This document shows, one piece after another, positions 3,254 through 7,908 of a stretch of DNA of 29,596 nt. Numbering within the stretch: position 1 is the stretch's first letter; the number at the start of each line of letters is the position of its first letter. The stretch lies in IMG/VR virus record IMGVR_UViG_2541047905_000021. One strand, given 5' to 3'. The DNA comes from a virus (lineage: Duplodnaviria > Heunggongvirae > Uroviricota > Caudoviricetes). The notes below the pieces were generated by a model. The model had not been told where the DNA came from, did not search any database, and saw nothing but the letters and a program-made list of their open reading frames with translations. A program made the translations under genes and the position numbers.

Positions 3254-3525
3254 GTATTCGTATCGAAATTGGCGAACGTTATGTCGTTACCAGTGACAGC
3301 TTTCAGTTTATTCTCCACGAGAAAAAGAGAGCGGAAAGCGGTAAAAACGCCGGTCAGGAATGGCTGGCGGTGGTTGGTTATTACCCGAAATTAAGCCAGC
3401 TCGTTTCCGGCCTGATGCATCACGATATTCTGACCGGAAGCGCAAAGTCTTTTGCTGATTTAAACGCGCAGGTTGAGCAACTCAGCAAGCGTTGTTCAGA
3501 GGCTTTTGGCTCATATGGCCGTTAA
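3250..3525 (+). CDS. Hypothetical early protein in the position of P2 orf83
   Basis: 91 aa. It overlaps its neighbours by 4 nt at its start and 11 nt at its end. Confidence 0.6.
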   Translation: MSIRIEIGERYVVTSDSFQFILHEKKRAESGKNAGQEWLAVVGYYPKLSQLVSGLMHHDILTGSAKSFADLNAQVEQLSKRCSEAFGSYGR

Positions 3526-5791
3526 AGCCTCCGGGCGTTTTGTCCCTCCGTCAACATTTGCTGCAGGTACCGGTAAGACGTTTACCGGTGCTTATGCATG
3601 GAACGCGCCACGCGAGGCCGTCGGGCGCGAAAGACCCCTTACACGTGACGAGATGCGTCAGGTGCAAGGTGTTTTATCCACGATTAACCGCCTGCCTTAC
3701 TTTTTGCGCTCGCTGTTTACTTCACGCTATGACTACATCCGGCGCAATAAAAGCCCGCTACACGGGTTTTATTTCCTCACATCCACTTTTCAGCGTCGTT
3801 TATGGCCGCGTATTGAGCGCGTTAATCAGCGCCATGAAATGAATACCGACGCGTCGTTGCTGTTTCTGGCAGAGCGTGACCATTATGCGCGCCTGCCTGG
3901 AATGAATGACAAGGAGCTGAAAAAGTTTGCCGCCCGTATCTCATCGCAGCTTTTCATGATGTATGAGGAACTCTGCGATGCCTGGGTGGATGCGCATGGC
4001 GAAAAAGAATCGCTGTTTACGGATGAGGCGCAGGCTCACCTGTATGGTCATGTTGCTGGCGCTGCACGTGCTTTCAATATTTCCCCGCTTTTCTGGAAAA
4101 AATACCGTAAAGGACAGATGACCACGAGGCAGGCATATTCTGCCATTGCCCGCCTGTTTAACGATGAGTGGTGGACTCATCAGCTTAAAGGCCAGCGTAT
4201 GCGCTGGCATGAGGCGTTACTGATTGCTGTCGGGGAGGTCAATAAAGACCGTTCACCTTATGCCAGTAAACATGCCATTCGTGATGTGCGTGCGCGCCGC
4301 CAGGCAAATCTGGAATTTCTTAAATCGTGTGACCTTGAAAACAGGGAAACCGGCGAGCGCATCGACCTTATCAGTAAGGTGATGGGCAGTATTTCTAATC
4401 CTGAAATTCGCCGGATGGAGCTGATGAACACCATCGCCGGTATTGAGCGTTACGCCGCCGCAGAGGGTGATGTGGGGATGTTTATCACGCTTACCGCGCC
4501 GTCAAAGTATCACCCGACACGTCAGGTTGGAAAAGGCGAAAATAAAACCGTCCAGCTTAATCACGGCTGGAATGATGAGGCATTTAATCCAAAGGATGCG
4601 CAGCGTTATCTCTGCCGTATCTGGAGCCTGATGCGCACGGCATTCAAGGATAATGATTTACAGGTCTACGGTTTGCGAGTCGTCGAGCCACACCACGACG
4701 GAACGCCGCACTGGCATATGATGCTTTTTTGTAATCCACGCCAGCGTAACCAGATTATCGAAATCATGCGTCGCTATGCGCTCAAAGAGGATGGCGACGA
4801 AAGAGGAGCCGCGCGAAACCGTTTTCAGGCAAAACACCTTAACCGGGGCGGTGCTGCGGGATATATCGCGAAATACATTTCAAAAAATATCGACGGCTAT
4901 GCACTGGATGGTCAGCTCGATAACGATACCGGCAGACCGCTGAAAGATACTGCGGCGGCTGTTACCGCATGGGCGTCAACGTGGCGCATCCCGCAATTTA
5001 AAACGGTTGGCCTGCCGACAATGGGAGCTTACCGTGAGCTACGTAAATTGCCTCGCGGCGTCAGCATTGCTGATGAATTTGACGAACGCGTGGAGGCTGC
5101 ACGCGCCGCCGCAGACAGTGGCGATTTTGCGCTGTATATCAGCGCGCAGGGCGGGGCAAATGTCCCGCGCGATTGTCAGACTGTCAGGGTTGCCCGTAGC
5201 CCGTCGGATGACGTTAACGAGTACGAGGAAGAAGTCGAGAGAGTGGTCGGCATTTACGCGCCGCATCTCGGCGCGCGTCATATTCATATCACCAGAACGA
5301 CGGACTGGCGCATTGTGCCGAAAGTTCCGGTCGTTGAGCCTTTGACTTTAAAAAGCGGCATCGCCGCGCCTCGGAGTCCTGTCAATAACTGTGGAAAGCT
5401 CACTGGTGGTGATACTTCGTTACCGGCTCCCACACCCTCTGAGCACGCCGTAGCAGTGCTTAATCTGGTTGATGACGGTGTCATCGAATGGAGTGACCCG
5501 GAGGTCGTGAGGACGCTCAGGGATGCATTAAAACACGGCCTGAAAACACCAAATCGTCAGCAAAGAAACGGAAGCCCGTTAAAACCACATGAAATAGCAC
5601 CGTCGGCCAGACTGACCCGGTCGGAACGATTGCAAATTACCCGTATCCGCGTTGACCTCGCTCAGAACGGTATCAGGCCGCAACGATGGGAGCTTGAGGC
5701 GCTGGCGCGTGGCGCGACCGTAAATTATGACGGGAAAAAATTCACGTATCCGGTTGCTGATGAGTGGCCGGGGTTCTCGTTACCCATTTGA
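3515..5791 (+). CDS. A: Replication initiation endonuclease gpA, a rolling-circle HUH nickase
   Basis: 758 aa from MAVKASGRF, compared with 761 aa for P2 gpA. It has the HUH-type motif EPHHDGTPHWHMMLF and the two-tyrosine motif GYIAKYISKN. The longer ORF starting at 3473 would overlap orf83 extensively. Confidence 0.9.
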   Translation: MAVKASGRFVPPSTFAAGTGKTFTGAYAWNAPREAVGRERPLTRDEMRQVQGVLSTINRLPYFLRSLFTSRYDYIRRNKSPLHGFYFLTSTFQRRLWPRIERVNQRHEMNTDASLLFLAERDHYARLPGMNDKELKKFAARISSQLFMMYEELCDAWVDAHGEKESLFTDEAQAHLYGHVAGAARAFNISPLFWKKYRKGQMTTRQAYSAIARLFNDEWWTHQLKGQRMRWHEALLIAVGEVNKDRSPYASKHAIRDVRARRQANLEFLKSCDLENRETGERIDLISKVMGSISNPEIRRMELMNTIAGIERYAAAEGDVGMFITLTAPSKYHPTRQVGKGENKTVQLNHGWNDEAFNPKDAQRYLCRIWSLMRTAFKDNDLQVYGLRVVEPHHDGTPHWHMMLFCNPRQRNQIIEIMRRYALKEDGDERGAARNRFQAKHLNRGGAAGYIAKYISKNIDGYALDGQLDNDTGRPLKDTAAAVTAWASTWRIPQFKTVGLPTMGAYRELRKLPRGVSIADEFDERVEAARAAADSGDFALYISAQGGANVPRDCQTVRVARSPSDDVNEYEEEVERVVGIYAPHLGARHIHITRTTDWRIVPKVPVVEPLTLKSGIAAPRSPVNNCGKLTGGDTSLPAPTPSEHAVAVLNLVDDGVIEWSDPEVVRTLRDALKHGLKTPNRQQRNGSPLKPHEIAPSARLTRSERLQITRIRVDLAQNGIRPQRWELEALARGATVNYDGKKFTYPVADEWPGFSLPI

Positions 5792-5860
5792 GTAAAAATA
5801 CAACGTGATTTGATATGGCATTGAATGGCTTATGCGGAGCAGTTATGGGGCAGCAGAAGG

Positions 5861-5898
5861 TCAATAGCATGCTGAATTAGAAGGCTAAATGCTATTGA
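5861..5898. other. Hairpin or inverted repeat TCAATAGCAT-N18-ATGCTATTGA
   Basis: Perfect 10-bp arms in non-coding DNA about 70 bp after the A stop. No T-run follows, so it is not a canonical terminator. Confidence 0.5.
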
Positions 5899-5972
5899 GT
5901 GACTAGCATGTCGGTAAGGACAGCCGTTTGATCCTGGTCATAAAAGGCCATCCATTTAGTCTAATAAAATCA

Positions 5973-6001
5973 TTGCGGGTAACCTTATGTCGACGCATAA
6001 T
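5973..6001 (+). promoter_or_regulatory. Candidate sigma70 promoter for the plus-strand sRNA: -35 TTGCGG (5973-5978), 17-bp spacer, -10 CATAAT (5996-6001)
   Basis: The hexamers and spacing were read directly from the sequence. An AT-rich tract (CTAATAAAAT) lies upstream. The predicted start is about 6008-6010, right at the 15-nt repeat. Confidence 0.35.
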
Positions 6002-6006
6002 TCGTC

Positions 6007-6021
6007 TTGAGCGAAGTCTTG
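6007..6021. repeat. 15-bp direct repeat, copy 1 (TTGAGCGAAGTCTTG)
   Basis: It is identical to 6271-6285. It lies at the predicted 5' end of the plus-strand sRNA. Confidence 0.95.
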
Positions 6022-6081
6022 TCAGTCTTTCATCGTATTGATGATGGGCGCAAAAAAACCACCCTGGCAGGTGGTTTTTTT
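6009..6081 (+). ncRNA. Candidate antitoxin-like sRNA of about 73 nt, made of a 5' seed, a small stem-loop (6030-6044) and an intrinsic terminator
   Basis: A promoter-like element lies upstream. The 5' sequence is complementary to the minus-strand leader at 6285-6271. There is an internal stem TCATC/GATGA and a terminal GC stem followed by a U7 tail. No credible ORF is present. Confidence 0.4.
6052..6081. terminator. Bidirectional rho-independent terminator (AAAAAAACCACC-CTGGCA-GGTGGTTTTTTT)
   Basis: A GC stem, CCACC/GGTGG, is flanked by an A7 run on one side and a T7 run on the other, so it can terminate transcription in both orientations. It sits 12 nt beyond the stop of the minus-strand 37-aa ORF. 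Confidence 0.8.
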
Positions 6082-6093
6082 GTTTGAAGCATA

Positions 6094-6207
6094 TTAAAGC
6101 ATAATGCTGACATTGATATTACTGACGTTTACTGACAAACCACTCGGACTACCGTTTGGATAGCCAAAGAGGGCCAGAACGAGAATGCAGTAATAGCATT
6201 TCTTCAT
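6094..6207 (-). CDS. 37-aa hydrophobic small peptide (MKKCYYCILVLALFGYPNGSPSGLSVNVSNINVSIML); candidate type I toxin or small membrane protein
   Basis: AGGAGG lies 4 nt upstream of the ATG. The peptide has a KK N-terminus, then about 15 hydrophobic residues, then a polar tail. The terminator follows immediately downstream. I do not recognise the sequence as any named family. Confidence 0.55.
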   Translation of the reverse strand: MKKCYYCILVLALFGYPNGSPSGLSVNVSNINVSIML

Positions 6208-6211
6208 ATTG

Positions 6212-6264
6212 CCTCCTGTAAGTAGAGGGCAACTTCCACCGGTATATGCGCTTCTTAGGTGGAA
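6212..6264 (-). promoter_or_regulatory. Predicted leader structures. One hairpin is CCUCU/GGAGG (6228-6212) and would occlude the SD. The other is a 7-bp hairpin UUCCACC/GGUGGAA (6264-6234).
   Basis: The complementary segments were read directly from the sequence. The SD-occluding stem is only 5 bp, one of them a G-U pair, so the evidence is modest. Confidence 0.35.
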
Positions 6265-6270
6265 TGACTT

Positions 6271-6285
6271 TTGAGCGAAGTCTTG
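6271..6285. repeat. 15-bp direct repeat, copy 2 (TTGAGCGAAGTCTTG), in the leader of the minus-strand peptide mRNA
   Basis: It is identical to 6007-6021. On the minus-strand RNA it reads CAAGACUUCGCUCAA, 64-78 nt upstream of the peptide AUG. Confidence 0.95.
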
Positions 6286-6351
6286 CCCTGAAATAATGCT
6301 CTGTTTAAACGCAAAGTGATTTGGCATATCACCGAACAGAGAGCCGGAAAA

Positions 6352-6401
6352 ACACAACATATAGTATGTCGTTGTTTCTAGACATACATTCTATGTTGTG
6401 T
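6352..6401. other. Large imperfect palindrome: ACACAACATATAGTATGTC, a 10-nt spacer, then GACATACATTCTATGTTGTGT
   Basis: The arms pair over 10 bp plus 7 bp around a small internal bulge. The palindrome overlaps the candidate promoter of the peptide mRNA. Confidence 0.6.
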
Positions 6402-6416
6402 AACAAGGGCTTTGCA
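6388..6416 (-). promoter_or_regulatory. Tentative promoter for the peptide mRNA: -35 TGCAAA (6416-6411), 17-bp spacer, -10 TAGAAT (6393-6388)
   Basis: The -10 is good and the -35 is weak. An AT-rich tract lies upstream. This is the best of several weak candidates. Confidence 0.25.
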
Positions 6417-6562
6417 TTAAACATGTTTGAGATTTTATTGATGTAGCTCAAAGTAAAAAACAGAGACTACGGATGATAAGGTCTTGAAAGCAATGTAAAT
6501 TTTTTAAAGTTGCCAATTGCTTAAAAATGTACAGTTGCGGTATGGCGTACTTAAAAAGCTAT

Positions 6563-6591
6563 GCATGCAACAAGTGAATGTTTTTGCATGC
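6563..6591. other. Inverted repeat GCATGCAA-N13-TTGCATGC
   Basis: It has 8-bp perfect arms, each containing the palindrome GCATGC, in the AT-rich tract before cos. Confidence 0.45.
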
Positions 6592-6685
6592 GTTGGGGAT
6601 GTCCGTTCAGGCTGCGTGCGGTCAGGACTGGTGCGGATCCATAGTATCTATGCAACTGCATTAAAACCGCCCCGTGAAGCGGGCG

Positions 6686-6704
6686 GGCGAGGCGGGGAAA
6701 GCAC
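6686..6704. other. cos: cos cohesive-end sequence GGCGAGGCGGGGAAAGCAC (19 nt)
   Basis: It matches the P2 19-nt cohesive end as I remember it. It lies between the cargo region and the end of Q, exactly where the P2 map places cos. A GC hairpin (6667-6686) abuts it. Confidence 0.8.
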
Positions 6705-6845
6705 TGCGCGCTGGCGGTGGTGCTGATTTTATTTTTTCGGCGTCTCAGCGCGTCGTGATGGCGTTTAGATTGTGTGCCGGGGCGTCGGTGTGTCTGCGGG
6801 CTGTTTTGCGTGGAGGTGAGCGTGTGAGGGCGTGATGACGGGGTG

Positions 6846-6869
6846 TAAAAAAGCCGCCCGCAGGCGGCG
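6846..6869 (-). terminator. Intrinsic terminator after Q (GCCGCC-TGC-GGGCGGC-TTTTTT on the minus strand)
   Basis: A GC-rich stem plus a T6 run begins 5 nt after the Q stop. Confidence 0.8.
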
Positions 6870-6873
6870 ATGT

Positions 6874-7908
6874 TCAGCCGTTGTCAGTGTCCAGTGAGTA
6901 GTTTTTAAAGCGGATGACCTCCTGACCGAGCCAGCCGTTTATCTCGCGGATCCTGTCCTGTAGCGGGATAAGCTCATTGCGGACAAAGACCTTTGCCACT
7001 TTCTCAATATCACCCAACGACCCGACGTTCTCCGGCTTGCCGCCCATCAACTGAAAGGGGATGCGGTGCGCGTCCAGCAGGTCAGTGGCGCTGGCTTTTT
7101 TGATATTAAAAAAATCGTCCTTCGTCGCTACTTCACTGAGGGGGATAATTTTAATGCCGTCAGCTTTCCCCTGTGGCGCATAGAGAAACAGATTTTTAAA
7201 GTTGTTGCGGCCTTTCGACTTAACCATGTTTTCGCGAAGCATTTCGATATCGTTGCGATCCTGCACGGCATCGGTGACGTACATGATGTATCCGGCATGT
7301 GCGCCATTTTCGTAATACTTGCGGCGGAACAGCGTGGCCGACTCATTCAGCCAGGCAGAGTTAAGGGCGCTGAGATATTCCGGCAGGCCGTACAGCTCCT
7401 GATTAATATCCGGCTCCAGCAGGTGAAACACGGAGCCGGGCGCGAAAGGTATCGGCTCGTTGAAGGACGGCACCCACCAGTAAACATCCTCCTCCACGCC
7501 ACGGCGGGTATATTTTGCCGGTGAGGTTTCCAGTCTGATGACCTTACCGGTGGTGCTGTAACGCTTTTCCAGAAACGCATTACCGAACACCAGAAAATCC
7601 AGCACAAAGCGGCTGAAATCCTGCTGGGAAAGCCACGGGTGCGGGATAAATGTCGAGGCCAGAATATTGCGTTTGACGTAAATCGGGGAGCTGTGATGCA
7701 CGGCAGCACGCAGGCTTTTTGCCAGACCGGTAAAGCTGATTGGTGGCTCATACCATCTGCCGTTACTGATGCACTCGACATAATCCAGAATGTCACGGCG
7801 GTCGAGTACCGGCACCGGATCACCAAAGGTGAATGCCTCCATTTTCGGGGCGCTGGCGGTCATTGTTTTTGCCGCAGGTTGCGGTGTTTTCCCTTTTTTC
7901 TTGCTCAT
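6874..7908 (-). CDS. Q: Portal protein gpQ
   Basis: 344 aa, the same as P2 gpQ, in the conserved position beside cos. Its start overlaps the P stop. Confidence 0.9.
   Translation of the reverse strand: MSKKKGKTPQPAAKTMTASAPKMEAFTFGDPVPVLDRRDILDYVECISNGRWYEPPISFTGLAKSLRAAVHHSSPIYVKRNILASTFIPHPWLSQQDFSRFVLDFLVFGNAFLEKRYSTTGKVIRLETSPAKYTRRGVEEDVYWWVPSFNEPIPFAPGSVFHLLEPDINQELYGLPEYLSALNSAWLNESATLFRRKYYENGAHAGYIMYVTDAVQDRNDIEMLRENMVKSKGRNNFKNLFLYAPQGKADGIKIIPLSEVATKDDFFNIKKASATDLLDAHRIPFQLMGGKPENVGSLGDIEKVAKVFVRNELIPLQDRIREINGWLGQEVIRFKNYSLDTDNG

Follow-up and report, generated by a model that had tools for sequence, protein, structure and literature searches.

A 37-codon gene and a convergent small RNA with predicted type I toxin-antitoxin-like architecture beside cos in a P2-like phage

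We analysed a 29,596-nucleotide stretch of viral DNA (IMG/VR record IMGVR_UViG_2541047905_000021, Caudoviricetes; hereafter the window) and focused on the interval between the gene of its gpA homologue and the cohesive-end site, cos (positions 5792-6685). Most of this interval is occupied by a discrete mobile module of ~590 bp (~5925-6510), which consists of a peptide open reading frame (ORF), a promoter like that of nrdD and a convergent small RNA (sRNA). Judged from conservation and covariation, the peptide gene, the sRNA gene and their pairing are very probably real. By analogy with known systems, we favour with modest confidence a full toxin and antitoxin reading, in which the module represents a new family with type I toxin-antitoxin (TA) architecture.

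Results

The 37-codon ORF

The ORF is located on the minus strand (6207 to 6094), with its ATG at 6207, the end of its last codon at 6097 and its stop codon at 6096-6094. Its product is MKKCYYCILVLALFGYPNGSPSGLSVNVSNINVSIML. A Shine-Dalgarno (SD) sequence, AGGAGG, is found 4 nt 5′ of the ATG (6217-6212, minus strand), and GGAGG or GGUGG is kept at this place in all alleles. Homologues were gathered by pattern scans, tblastn and exact look-ups (MKRLSYCIILLTLLGYPLGSQSGWSVDISNISVSIVM and MNRLCLCILVLTLFGYPVGSQSGWSVNVSHINVNISL are examples). The ORF is exactly 37 codons long in every main-lineage copy, whether in a P2-like, N15-like or plasmid context. Its product has 39 residues in a Salmonella/Leclercia sublineage (MDRRDCMCLFILTLISHLITGQESWMVYLNHISLTVQFY) and 38 in one homologue, P0005. 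In pairwise Nei-Gojobori comparisons between lineages, the ratio of nonsynonymous to synonymous divergence (dN/dS) is 0.1-0.4, with dS of ~1 or saturated. The fixed length, the low dN/dS at saturated dS and the conserved SD and ATG argue that the ORF is a real gene under purifying selection.

The initial annotation of the interval had found no ORF credible beyond 37 codons. The program-made ORF list contains two longer candidates, and neither holds up as a gene. One is an 88-residue ORF on the minus strand (6094-6360), of which only the last 37 codons, with AGGAGG upstream, are conserved; in the N15-like copy L014 (loci are designated by L numbers) this N-terminal part has lost the reading frame, and indels alter it elsewhere. 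The other is a 69-residue ORF on the plus strand (6517-6726), which runs across cos. The 37-codon ORF, which the annotation had treated as an upper limit, itself appears to be a real gene.

Behind its basic N-terminus, the peptide has a hydrophobic segment of 12 residues, then a Pro/Gly break and finally a polar, beta-prone tail of alternating polarity that is rich in Ser and Asn. The mean Kyte-Doolittle hydropathy of residues 4-15 is 2.2. With 37 residues and a hydrophobic segment, the product has the features of the small (<60 residues) hydrophobic proteins of type I TA systems. It is predicted to adopt an N-in/C-out orientation in the inner membrane with a signal-anchor-like segment. The segment could be an uncleaved signal-anchor, as in TimP (PMC7667032), or a Sec signal cleaved after S-x-S.

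The sRNA seed and its target in the mRNA leader

An exact 15-mer, TTGAGCGAAGTCTTG, occurs twice in the interval. Copy 1 (6007-6021, plus strand) is the predicted 5′ seed of the sRNA. Copy 2 (6271-6285, minus strand) is the predicted seed target and reads CAAGACUUCGCUCAA in the peptide mRNA, 64-78 nt upstream of the AUG. Because the repeat is direct and the two genes are convergent, the 5′ end of the sRNA would be complementary to the mRNA leader. At the level of predicted transcripts, the sequence thus has the adjacent sRNA gene complementary to the toxin mRNA that characterizes type I TA systems. Measured in 13 alleles, the distance from the start of the target to the downstream AUG is 76-79 nt.

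Among 15 distinct seed/target combinations, only one cell of the comparison lacks pairing within the 15-bp core. Four core base pairs are changed on both sides, three of them with natural wobble intermediates. One series runs from G-C in Klebsiella plasmids through G.U in the window and L014 to A-U in L098 and L116; another from C-G through U.G (L038, L114) to U-A (L042, L043, L057); and the last from A-U through G.U (L014, L051) to G-C (L042, L043, L057). The observed covariation score was reached by 0 of 500 shuffles, and pairing is 92% in the true register versus 34-48% in slid registers. The duplex energy is -29.1 kcal/mol, versus -15.0 ± 2.5 kcal/mol for shuffled seeds. These sequence comparisons argue that the seed-target pairing is real and takes place between RNAs.

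Two natural seed classes, GAGCGAAGUCUUG and GAGCAAAGCCUUA, are predicted to be regulated orthogonally. One metagenomic contig (L091) carries two different module alleles, at 3412 and 6332, ~2.9 kb apart. Their seeds differ at a wobble position and could inform on cross-talk or orthogonality. We also considered host nrdD mRNA as a trans target of the sRNA. This candidate was dropped because the duplex energy of the seed with the host nrdD leader equals that of shuffled controls, with no special complementarity.

The sRNA gene and the shared terminator

The candidate sRNA promoter (5973-6001, plus strand) consists of a -35 element, TTGCGG (5973-5978), a 17-nt spacer and a -10 element, CATAAT (5996-6001). 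In 13 diverged alleles TTGC(G/C)N and CATAAT are kept, with 17-18 nt between them and 6 nt to the seed, while the spacer sequence is free to vary; this pattern identifies the segment as a likely promoter. The position of the promoter places the predicted sRNA start near 6008. The predicted sRNA is ~75 nt long (6008-6082, plus strand). Its single-stranded 5′ seed (6008-6022) is followed by stem-loop 1 (6025-6049) and, after a linker rich in A, by a Rho-independent terminator that ends in U7. The energy of its predicted fold is -29.5 kcal/mol (z = -4.05). The same fold, with a different stem-loop 1 sequence, is seen in the N15-like and Salmonella-phage versions, and five pairs of stem-loop 1 show compensatory changes (RNAalifold, 12 alleles).

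The terminator (6051-6082, both strands) is bidirectional and intrinsic, with perfect 13-bp arms (6051-6063 and 6070-6082), A7 before them and T7 after them. It is predicted to serve both the sRNA on the plus strand and the peptide mRNA on the minus strand. It is invariant in nearly all alleles, while the rest of the module has diverged to ~60% identity. On the plus strand it is also the first terminator 3′ of gpA in the P2 setting. Early-operon transcripts of gpA probably end here and would carry the seed in their 3′ untranslated region (UTR).

The 28-nt terminator core, AAAAAACCACCCTGGCAGGTGGTTTTTT, is found as an identical sequence in 28 of 64 metagenomic loci (among L052-L113). We take these 28 loci to be ColE1-type origins with the core at the RNA I terminator; they were recognized from their flanking sequence, with no annotation or model match. 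This common core explains the sub-threshold Rfam RNAI matches on both strands of the module. The identity may stem from common ancestry or from recombination, or the sequences may have converged because they make a good bidirectional terminator.

Upstream of the sRNA promoter is a TTGAT-N4-GTCAT motif (TTGATCCTGGTCAT, 5930-5943, plus strand), centred ~71 bp 5′ of the predicted sRNA start, which resembles one and a half FNR half-sites. It is found in most alleles of all replicon contexts, followed by a TAATAAA UP-like element. Its spacing varies by ~2 bp, and it is degenerate in L114 and L041. We tentatively suggest that it could be a site for FNR-like or other regulators of the sRNA.

The promoter of the peptide gene

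A segment on the minus strand (6406-6507), pointing toward the small ORF, resembles the nrdD promoter (blastn, 78-80% identity over 102 nt, E = 5e-16). Its E. coli match is the treC-nrdD intergenic region, which is present in all 5426 complete E. coli genomes. FNR activates the nrdDG genes (anaerobic ribonucleotide reductase), and NrdR represses them by way of two 16-bp boxes that are separated by 15 bp, box 1 of which overlaps an FNR site (PMC2892513, PMC12176259). In the module, an FNR box, TTGAGCTACATCAA, is located at 6451 to 6438 (minus strand). It is the sole FNR-consensus site with at most one mismatch in the window. The predicted -10 element, TAGAAT (6393 to 6388), and the putative transcription start at ~6381-6383 (together 6381-6393, minus strand) follow. 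The -10 element is collinear with TAAAAT of E. coli nrdD, its distance from the FNR box is the same as in E. coli, and TA(G/A)AAT is kept in all alleles. The homology and the FNR box at the matching position indicate a promoter of the nrdDG type, homologous to that of E. coli nrdD.

Two NrdR-box-like 16-mers form an inverted repeat (6352-6401, minus strand), with ATACTATATGTTGTGT at 6352-6367, ACACAACATAGAATGT at 6386-6401 and an 18-bp linker between them. E. coli NrdR boxes for the comparison were the probe sequences of PMC12176259. The box at 6386-6401 overlaps the -10 element and has one good half only. The sole match in the window to the NrdR core, CWAYATNTWG, is at 6355-6364. Linkers measure 16 bp in a sister P2 lineage, 15-16 bp in L014 and L116, and 26 bp in L038 and L114. 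These last four loci have two good NrdR-like boxes at nrdD-like positions; the P2 lineage has its promoter-proximal box shifted by ~9 bp. FNR and NrdR may act on the module promoter. Relative to L001, L002 and L004 of the sister lineage, the window allele has a 2-bp insertion between the NrdR-box-like repeats. The region of a second FNR-like half-site (6408-6421) is degenerate in the window allele (TTTAATGCAAA versus TTGATGCAAA). Regulation may differ between the two P2 lineages.

The structured mRNA leader

The peptide mRNA is predicted to be ~335 nt long (~6383 to 6050) with a 5′ UTR of ~175 nt. A hairpin in the 5′ UTR, UUCCACC...GGUGGAA (6234-6264, minus strand), is located between the target site and the SD. 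Its stem shows compensation, being CCACC/GGUGG in the window, CCGCC/GGCGG in the sister lineage and CCUUCAG/CUGAAGG in L014. A nested stem-loop, CUCUGUU-CGGUGAU...AUCAC-...AAACAGAG (6299-6341, minus strand), is also conserved, and RNAalifold found compensatory changes in it in L014, L042 and L043 (columns 46-52/85-91 and 54-59/69-74). For the full-length mRNA the folding z-score is -4.75. Folding predicts that the SD is paired for the most part (probability of being unpaired, 0.03-0.34), and this sequestration likens the mRNA to the translationally inert mRNAs of type I toxins. We rejected a model in which sRNA binding frees the anti-SD strand, as constrained partition-function folding of 13 alleles gave no consistent change in SD accessibility. 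By analogy with known systems, repression may operate through a block of a standby site or through RNase cleavage.

Distribution and genomic contexts

At least 80% of the 894-bp interval is covered by megablast in 149 of 5426 complete E. coli genomes (114 at ≥99% identity), always on the chromosome; E. coli W and LY180 have it at 99.6% identity. Among the full-length E. coli matches listed, no annotated feature lies under the match. A sister allele with ~86-88% identity is found in Salmonella phage MET_P1_103_31, in the P2-like phage OU784750 and in E. coli S65EC. In this sister lineage the homology extends to ~6530, and three protein genes occupy the DNA from there to cos (L004, 5138-7313; L001, 4137-6312; L002, 4136-5312). 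The first cargo protein is a 161-residue ImmA/IrrE peptidase that matches CapP in PADLOC at 1e-30; the neighbouring proteins of 199 and 313 residues gave no match. These three genes are probably conventional defence cargo adjoining the module. Because the module is located upstream of such conventional protein cargo in the sister lineage, it behaves as a separate unit and not as a defence-cargo allele. In the related prophage of E. coli S65EC (L004, 1725-4000), RefSeq marks the gpA replication endonuclease as frameshifted, and this prophage may be defective.

The complete module, comprising promoter, leader, ORF, terminator and sRNA, sits 3′ of gpA in P2-like phages. It also occurs elsewhere. 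In L014 (1313-8132) a diverged copy is located between the genes of a 1383-residue Toprim replication protein and a protelomerase with TelK domains, which indicates an N15-like linear plasmid-prophage. In L114 (1-4125) the module is beside Zot, secretin and DUF2523 genes on an 8.2-kb genome-assembly contig, apparently a filamentous phage (inovirus), and its peptide has 38 residues with an extra Phe. A module fragment adjoins a secretin gene in L116 (3001-4528). Some 390 large Klebsiella plasmids carry the module; most are predicted to be conjugative, and IncFIB, IncFII and IncHI1B replicons were present in the examples fetched. Plasmids of Enterobacter, Salmonella, Citrobacter and Leclercia carry it as well. 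Two scans with degenerate peptide patterns found 0 matches in 185,579 species-representative genomes, so that the reference chromosomes lack the module. Only persistent mobile elements, with four unrelated backbones, carry it; this is the classic distribution of an addiction module. In every copy examined but one it is unannotated; in that one, a Salmonella phage, the 37-residue ORF is called a "hypothetical protein". K. pneumoniae MGH 78578, the subject of a differential RNA-seq and RNA interaction by ligation and sequencing (dRNA-seq/RIL-seq) study (PMC10907235), has a plasmid pKPN3 that lacks the module.

Similarity searches

Searches against known families returned little. With all 4227 Rfam families (E ≤ 10, positions 5500-7000), only sub-threshold matches driven by the terminator were obtained (RNAI, Phe leader, OrzO-P and others). 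The 37-residue peptide had nothing significant in Pfam and NCBIfam (E ≤ 10) or PHROGs and matched 0 families of PADLOC-DB 2.0; the 88-residue translation had no match in Pfam, NCBIfam or PHROGs. A word search of 5.8 billion proteins gave 3 hits and a HMMER search of 1.84 billion representatives gave 7, all of them members of the family described here. Searches by tblastn and hidden Markov models (HMMs) detected no fragment of a larger gene in the interval. No relevant paper came up in a full-text literature search with the strings of the seed and the peptide.

Boundaries of the interval

The gpA homologue (772 residues) stops at 5791, and a minus-strand portal gene begins at 6874. As the initial annotation had proposed, the interval is located in the gpA-gpQ cos-proximal hotspot of P2-like phages (PMC9122126) and is AT-rich, with a GC content of 0.36-0.45 over 5850-6600 versus 0.50-0.60 in gpA and the late genes. 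The repeat pair, the bidirectional terminator and the three inverted repeats that it had listed (5861-5898, 6352-6401 and 6563-6591) were all located in the interval. Its placement of cos was also correct. The 19-nt cohesive-end sequence, GGCGAGGCGGGGAAAGCAC (6686-6704, plus strand), exactly matches cosL/cosR as annotated for P2 (NC_001895), and 6657-6685 has the same sequence as the right end of P2, which makes the interval the right end of the genome.

The cargo is shorter than the ~0.9 kb first assigned to it. The last 135 bp (6551-6685, no strand), which include the inverted repeat at 6563-6591, can be aligned with the P2 right end and have 93-98% identity to the ends of Yersinia and Escherichia P2-like phage records. 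As this segment matches the record ends of other P2-family phages, it belongs to the conserved cos-proximal backbone and not to the cargo, and the true insert spans about 5792-6550. Within this backbone we noted the inverted repeat at 6563-6591 and repeated TGCA(T/A) motifs at 6645-6656; the corresponding P2 region holds the old-tin mRNA start sites (33424/33426). Downstream of 6563-6656 in the old-tin direction, the window has no gene except the module.

Between the gpA stop codon and the module is a non-coding spacer (5792-5925, no strand) that is specific to the P2 lineage and contains a hairpin with a 10-bp stem at 5861-5898. Conservation of the spacer across the two P2 lineages is only ~80%, and the plasmid, N15-like and inovirus copies lack an equivalent segment. 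A 30-nt direct repeat with 70% identity (5796-5825 and 6307-6336) links the sequence after the gpA stop with the leader block of the peptide mRNA. It could be the remnant of an older partial copy, or a chance match.

Discussion

In the mechanism that we infer, including its transcript ends, direction of regulation, FNR and NrdR binding and toxicity, an nrdD-derived promoter with an FNR activator box would drive a highly structured peptide mRNA from the minus strand, with NrdR-repressor-like boxes over and just 3′ of its -10 element. On the plus strand, a constitutive-looking sigma-70 promoter would produce the sRNA, which would converge on the bidirectional terminator that also ends the mRNA. 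Its first ~15 nt would pair with the leader ~77 nt upstream of the AUG, and the 3′ terminator hairpins of the two RNAs would be complementary to each other. By analogy with TisB/IstR-1, ZorO/OrzO, TimP/TimR and par(pAD1), the sRNA may hold the peptide mRNA untranslated or mark it for cleavage. Peptide synthesis would rise when anaerobiosis (via FNR) or a fall in dATP (release of NrdR) boosts transcription, or when the sRNA is lost. The peptide might then damage or modulate the membrane, and in this way stabilize the carrier element or harm cells or competitors.

A more specific version of this mechanism is that mobile elements use the captured nrdD promoter as a suicide or exclusion switch that senses the nucleotide pool and oxygen, with NrdR (loaded with dATP/ATP) and FNR gating a membrane-active peptide. 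Distortion of the dATP pool by phage or replication stress, or the anaerobic gut, would cause NrdR to leave and the mRNA to outrun the sRNA; the peptide would then abort infection or kill plasmid-free or competitor cells. We regard this version as improbable. If true, ORF-based finders would be blind to this RNA-plus-mini-protein system of defence or addiction, and its toxin would be the first one known that is connected to the ribonucleotide-reductase regulon.

Several observations weigh against the toxin and antitoxin reading. The peptide is unlike classical enterobacterial type I toxins, since its tail is not charged but polar and rich in Ser and Asn; if its segment is a Sec-type signal, possibly cleaved at S-x-S, the product would instead be a secreted 15-mer. 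With release of the anti-SD strand unsupported, the explanation of how pairing 77 nt upstream could block translation draws on analogy. In the window allele, the half-match NrdR box, the 18-bp linker and the degenerate FNR half-site suggest that control by NrdR and FNR may be weaker than in other alleles. The concerted change of two direct repeats could also reflect a DNA-binding protein that recognizes both, but the single-sided changes are wobble-compatible, with G.U intermediates, and for this reason we favour RNA pairing.

The peptide could be the product of a non-toxic accessory gene, a "moron", made in anaerobiosis or nucleotide stress as a conditional membrane or periplasmic modulator (for example of an envelope protein, receptor or transporter) to the benefit of the host or the element, with the sRNA tuning its level and no killing. 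Its signal-peptide-like n/h/c organization, the small residues at a possible cleavage site (S-P/Q-S|G) and the amphipathic, beta-strand-like C-terminus would suit such a role, and physiological control of the FNR/NrdR type resembles a conditional function more than an addiction switch. A review (PMC12648545) deals with small membrane proteins under sRNA control, many of which are not toxins. However, toxins that need to be kept off typically have a tight antisense layout, an SD that is sequestered and a long, structured leader, as seen here. The module is also restricted to mobile elements, as judged from the scan of species-representative genomes, and adjoins other TA systems on plasmids. We consider a non-toxic accessory role possible but doubtful. 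A dedicated anti-phage system is less probable still, and we think it unlikely. Here infection would upset the sRNA:mRNA balance or the deoxynucleotide pool to which NrdR responds; the peptide would then act by abortive infection or exclusion, killing or blocking either the infected cell or the phage that enters it. The P2 gpA-gpQ site is a validated defence hotspot (PMC9122126) whose only content here is the module, the sister-lineage copy adjoins a CapP-like defence-associated gene, and an NrdR-box-like operator would tie expression to nucleotide pools disturbed by phages. Yet the peptide has no PADLOC match, and most copies are on conjugative plasmids or on plasmid-like or filamentous phages, outside recognized defence hotspots. 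The distribution on plasmids and plasmid-prophages fits an addiction or TA role at least as well as an anti-phage function.

Finally, the interval is AT-rich, unannotated and beside cos, and its repeats and palindromes could be protein-binding sites. It might on these grounds be a decayed remnant, which the initial annotation had named as the outcome that would refute it, or a DNA-level feature only (packaging or replication sites, protein-binding repeats) without gene products. Purifying selection on an ORF of fixed length and RNA-type covariation with G.U intermediates in three separate helices rule out decay, and the searches for fragments of a larger gene came back empty. Moreover, the module is present in replicons without cos and with different replication systems. 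We judge this explanation highly improbable.

The expectation that the cargo consists of RNA or a mini-protein and would be missed by ORF-based finders agrees with the sRNA and the 37-residue gene found here, which the Prokaryotic Genome Annotation Pipeline also missed. The cassette is recurrent, as its presence in 149 complete E. coli genomes indicates, but it is not an allele specific to the hotspot, given that an N15-like telomere phage, a filamentous phage and plasmids harbour it too. If confirmed, the module would add a common but unannotated family to type I TA-like systems, found on ~390 plasmids of Klebsiella and other enterobacteria, in ~3% of complete E. coli genomes (as part of P2-like prophages), and in an N15-like and a filamentous phage. 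Even where gene callers see nothing, a P2 defence hotspot can be occupied, and annotation pipelines for plasmids and prophages as well as defence finders overlook the module entirely. It would be a clear example of a mobile element that co-opts a host housekeeping promoter (nrdD, with FNR and NrdR) to time the expression of a small peptide. A link between nucleotide-pool and oxygen sensing and the maintenance or defence of mobile elements becomes directly testable.

Comparison with known systems

In par(pAD1), which is plasmid-borne, the toxin mRNA (RNA I, encoding Fst) and the antitoxin RNA II are convergent and share a bidirectional terminator, with direct repeats near their 5′ ends. The module is likewise convergent and found on plasmids, and its RNAs combine repeat-derived 5′ complementarity with overlapping terminators, so that the layout is the same. 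It differs in having one repeat pair where par has two, located ~77 nt upstream of the AUG instead of over the ribosome-binding site. Its hosts are Gram-negative, and its toxin promoter is regulated and nrdD-like. There is no similarity of peptide or RNA, and no Fst/Ldr homology was found in Pfam or NCBIfam at E ≤ 10.

More generally, no family HMM match was obtained for Hok/Sok, Ldr, TisB, Ibs, ShoB, Zor or DinQ, and the Rfam matches were sub-threshold and limited to the terminator. The TisB/IstR-1, ZorO/OrzO, ShoB/OhsC and DinQ/AgrB systems resemble the module in their ~15-30 nt of perfect complementarity between sRNA and toxin 5′ UTR far upstream of the ribosome-binding site, in their structured leaders with occluded SD and, for tisB and dinQ, in a stress-regulated promoter (LexA). 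Their gene arrangement is different, they have no peptide or RNA homology to the module, and the input of the module is FNR/NrdR-like and not LexA. The OrzO-P model of Rfam scores 21 bits on the module against a threshold of 60, on the terminator only. ColE1 RNA I (RF00106) is also a small antisense RNA and appears to share the terminator core, but it scores 24.8 and 24.2 bits against a gathering threshold of 47, again on the terminator only, and the module has no replication-primer context. The E. coli nrdDG promoter shares with the module the upstream FNR box, the TTGATGCAAA region, the -10 spacing and, in most alleles, the NrdR boxes; the module version drives a 37-residue peptide with an unrelated leader and not a ribonucleotide reductase.

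TimP/TimR is enterobacterial like the module, has a ~38-residue peptide with a Sec-signal-like N-terminus and a 5′ UTR of 144 nt (~175 nt in the module), and its sRNA 5′ end also pairs in the 5′ UTR at a conserved position relative to the ORF (PMC7667032). In contrast to the module, TimR is encoded divergently upstream and shares no terminator, and the chromosomal core locus (sseA-sseB) is not mobile-element cargo and has no nrdD-type promoter. No match to its Rfam family (ryfA, RF00126) was found at E ≤ 10 over 5500-7000. By sequence, the module appears homologous to none of these systems and is therefore best described as a candidate new family, closest to par(pAD1) in its layout and closest to TimP/TimR in its type of peptide and its targeting of the 5′ UTR.

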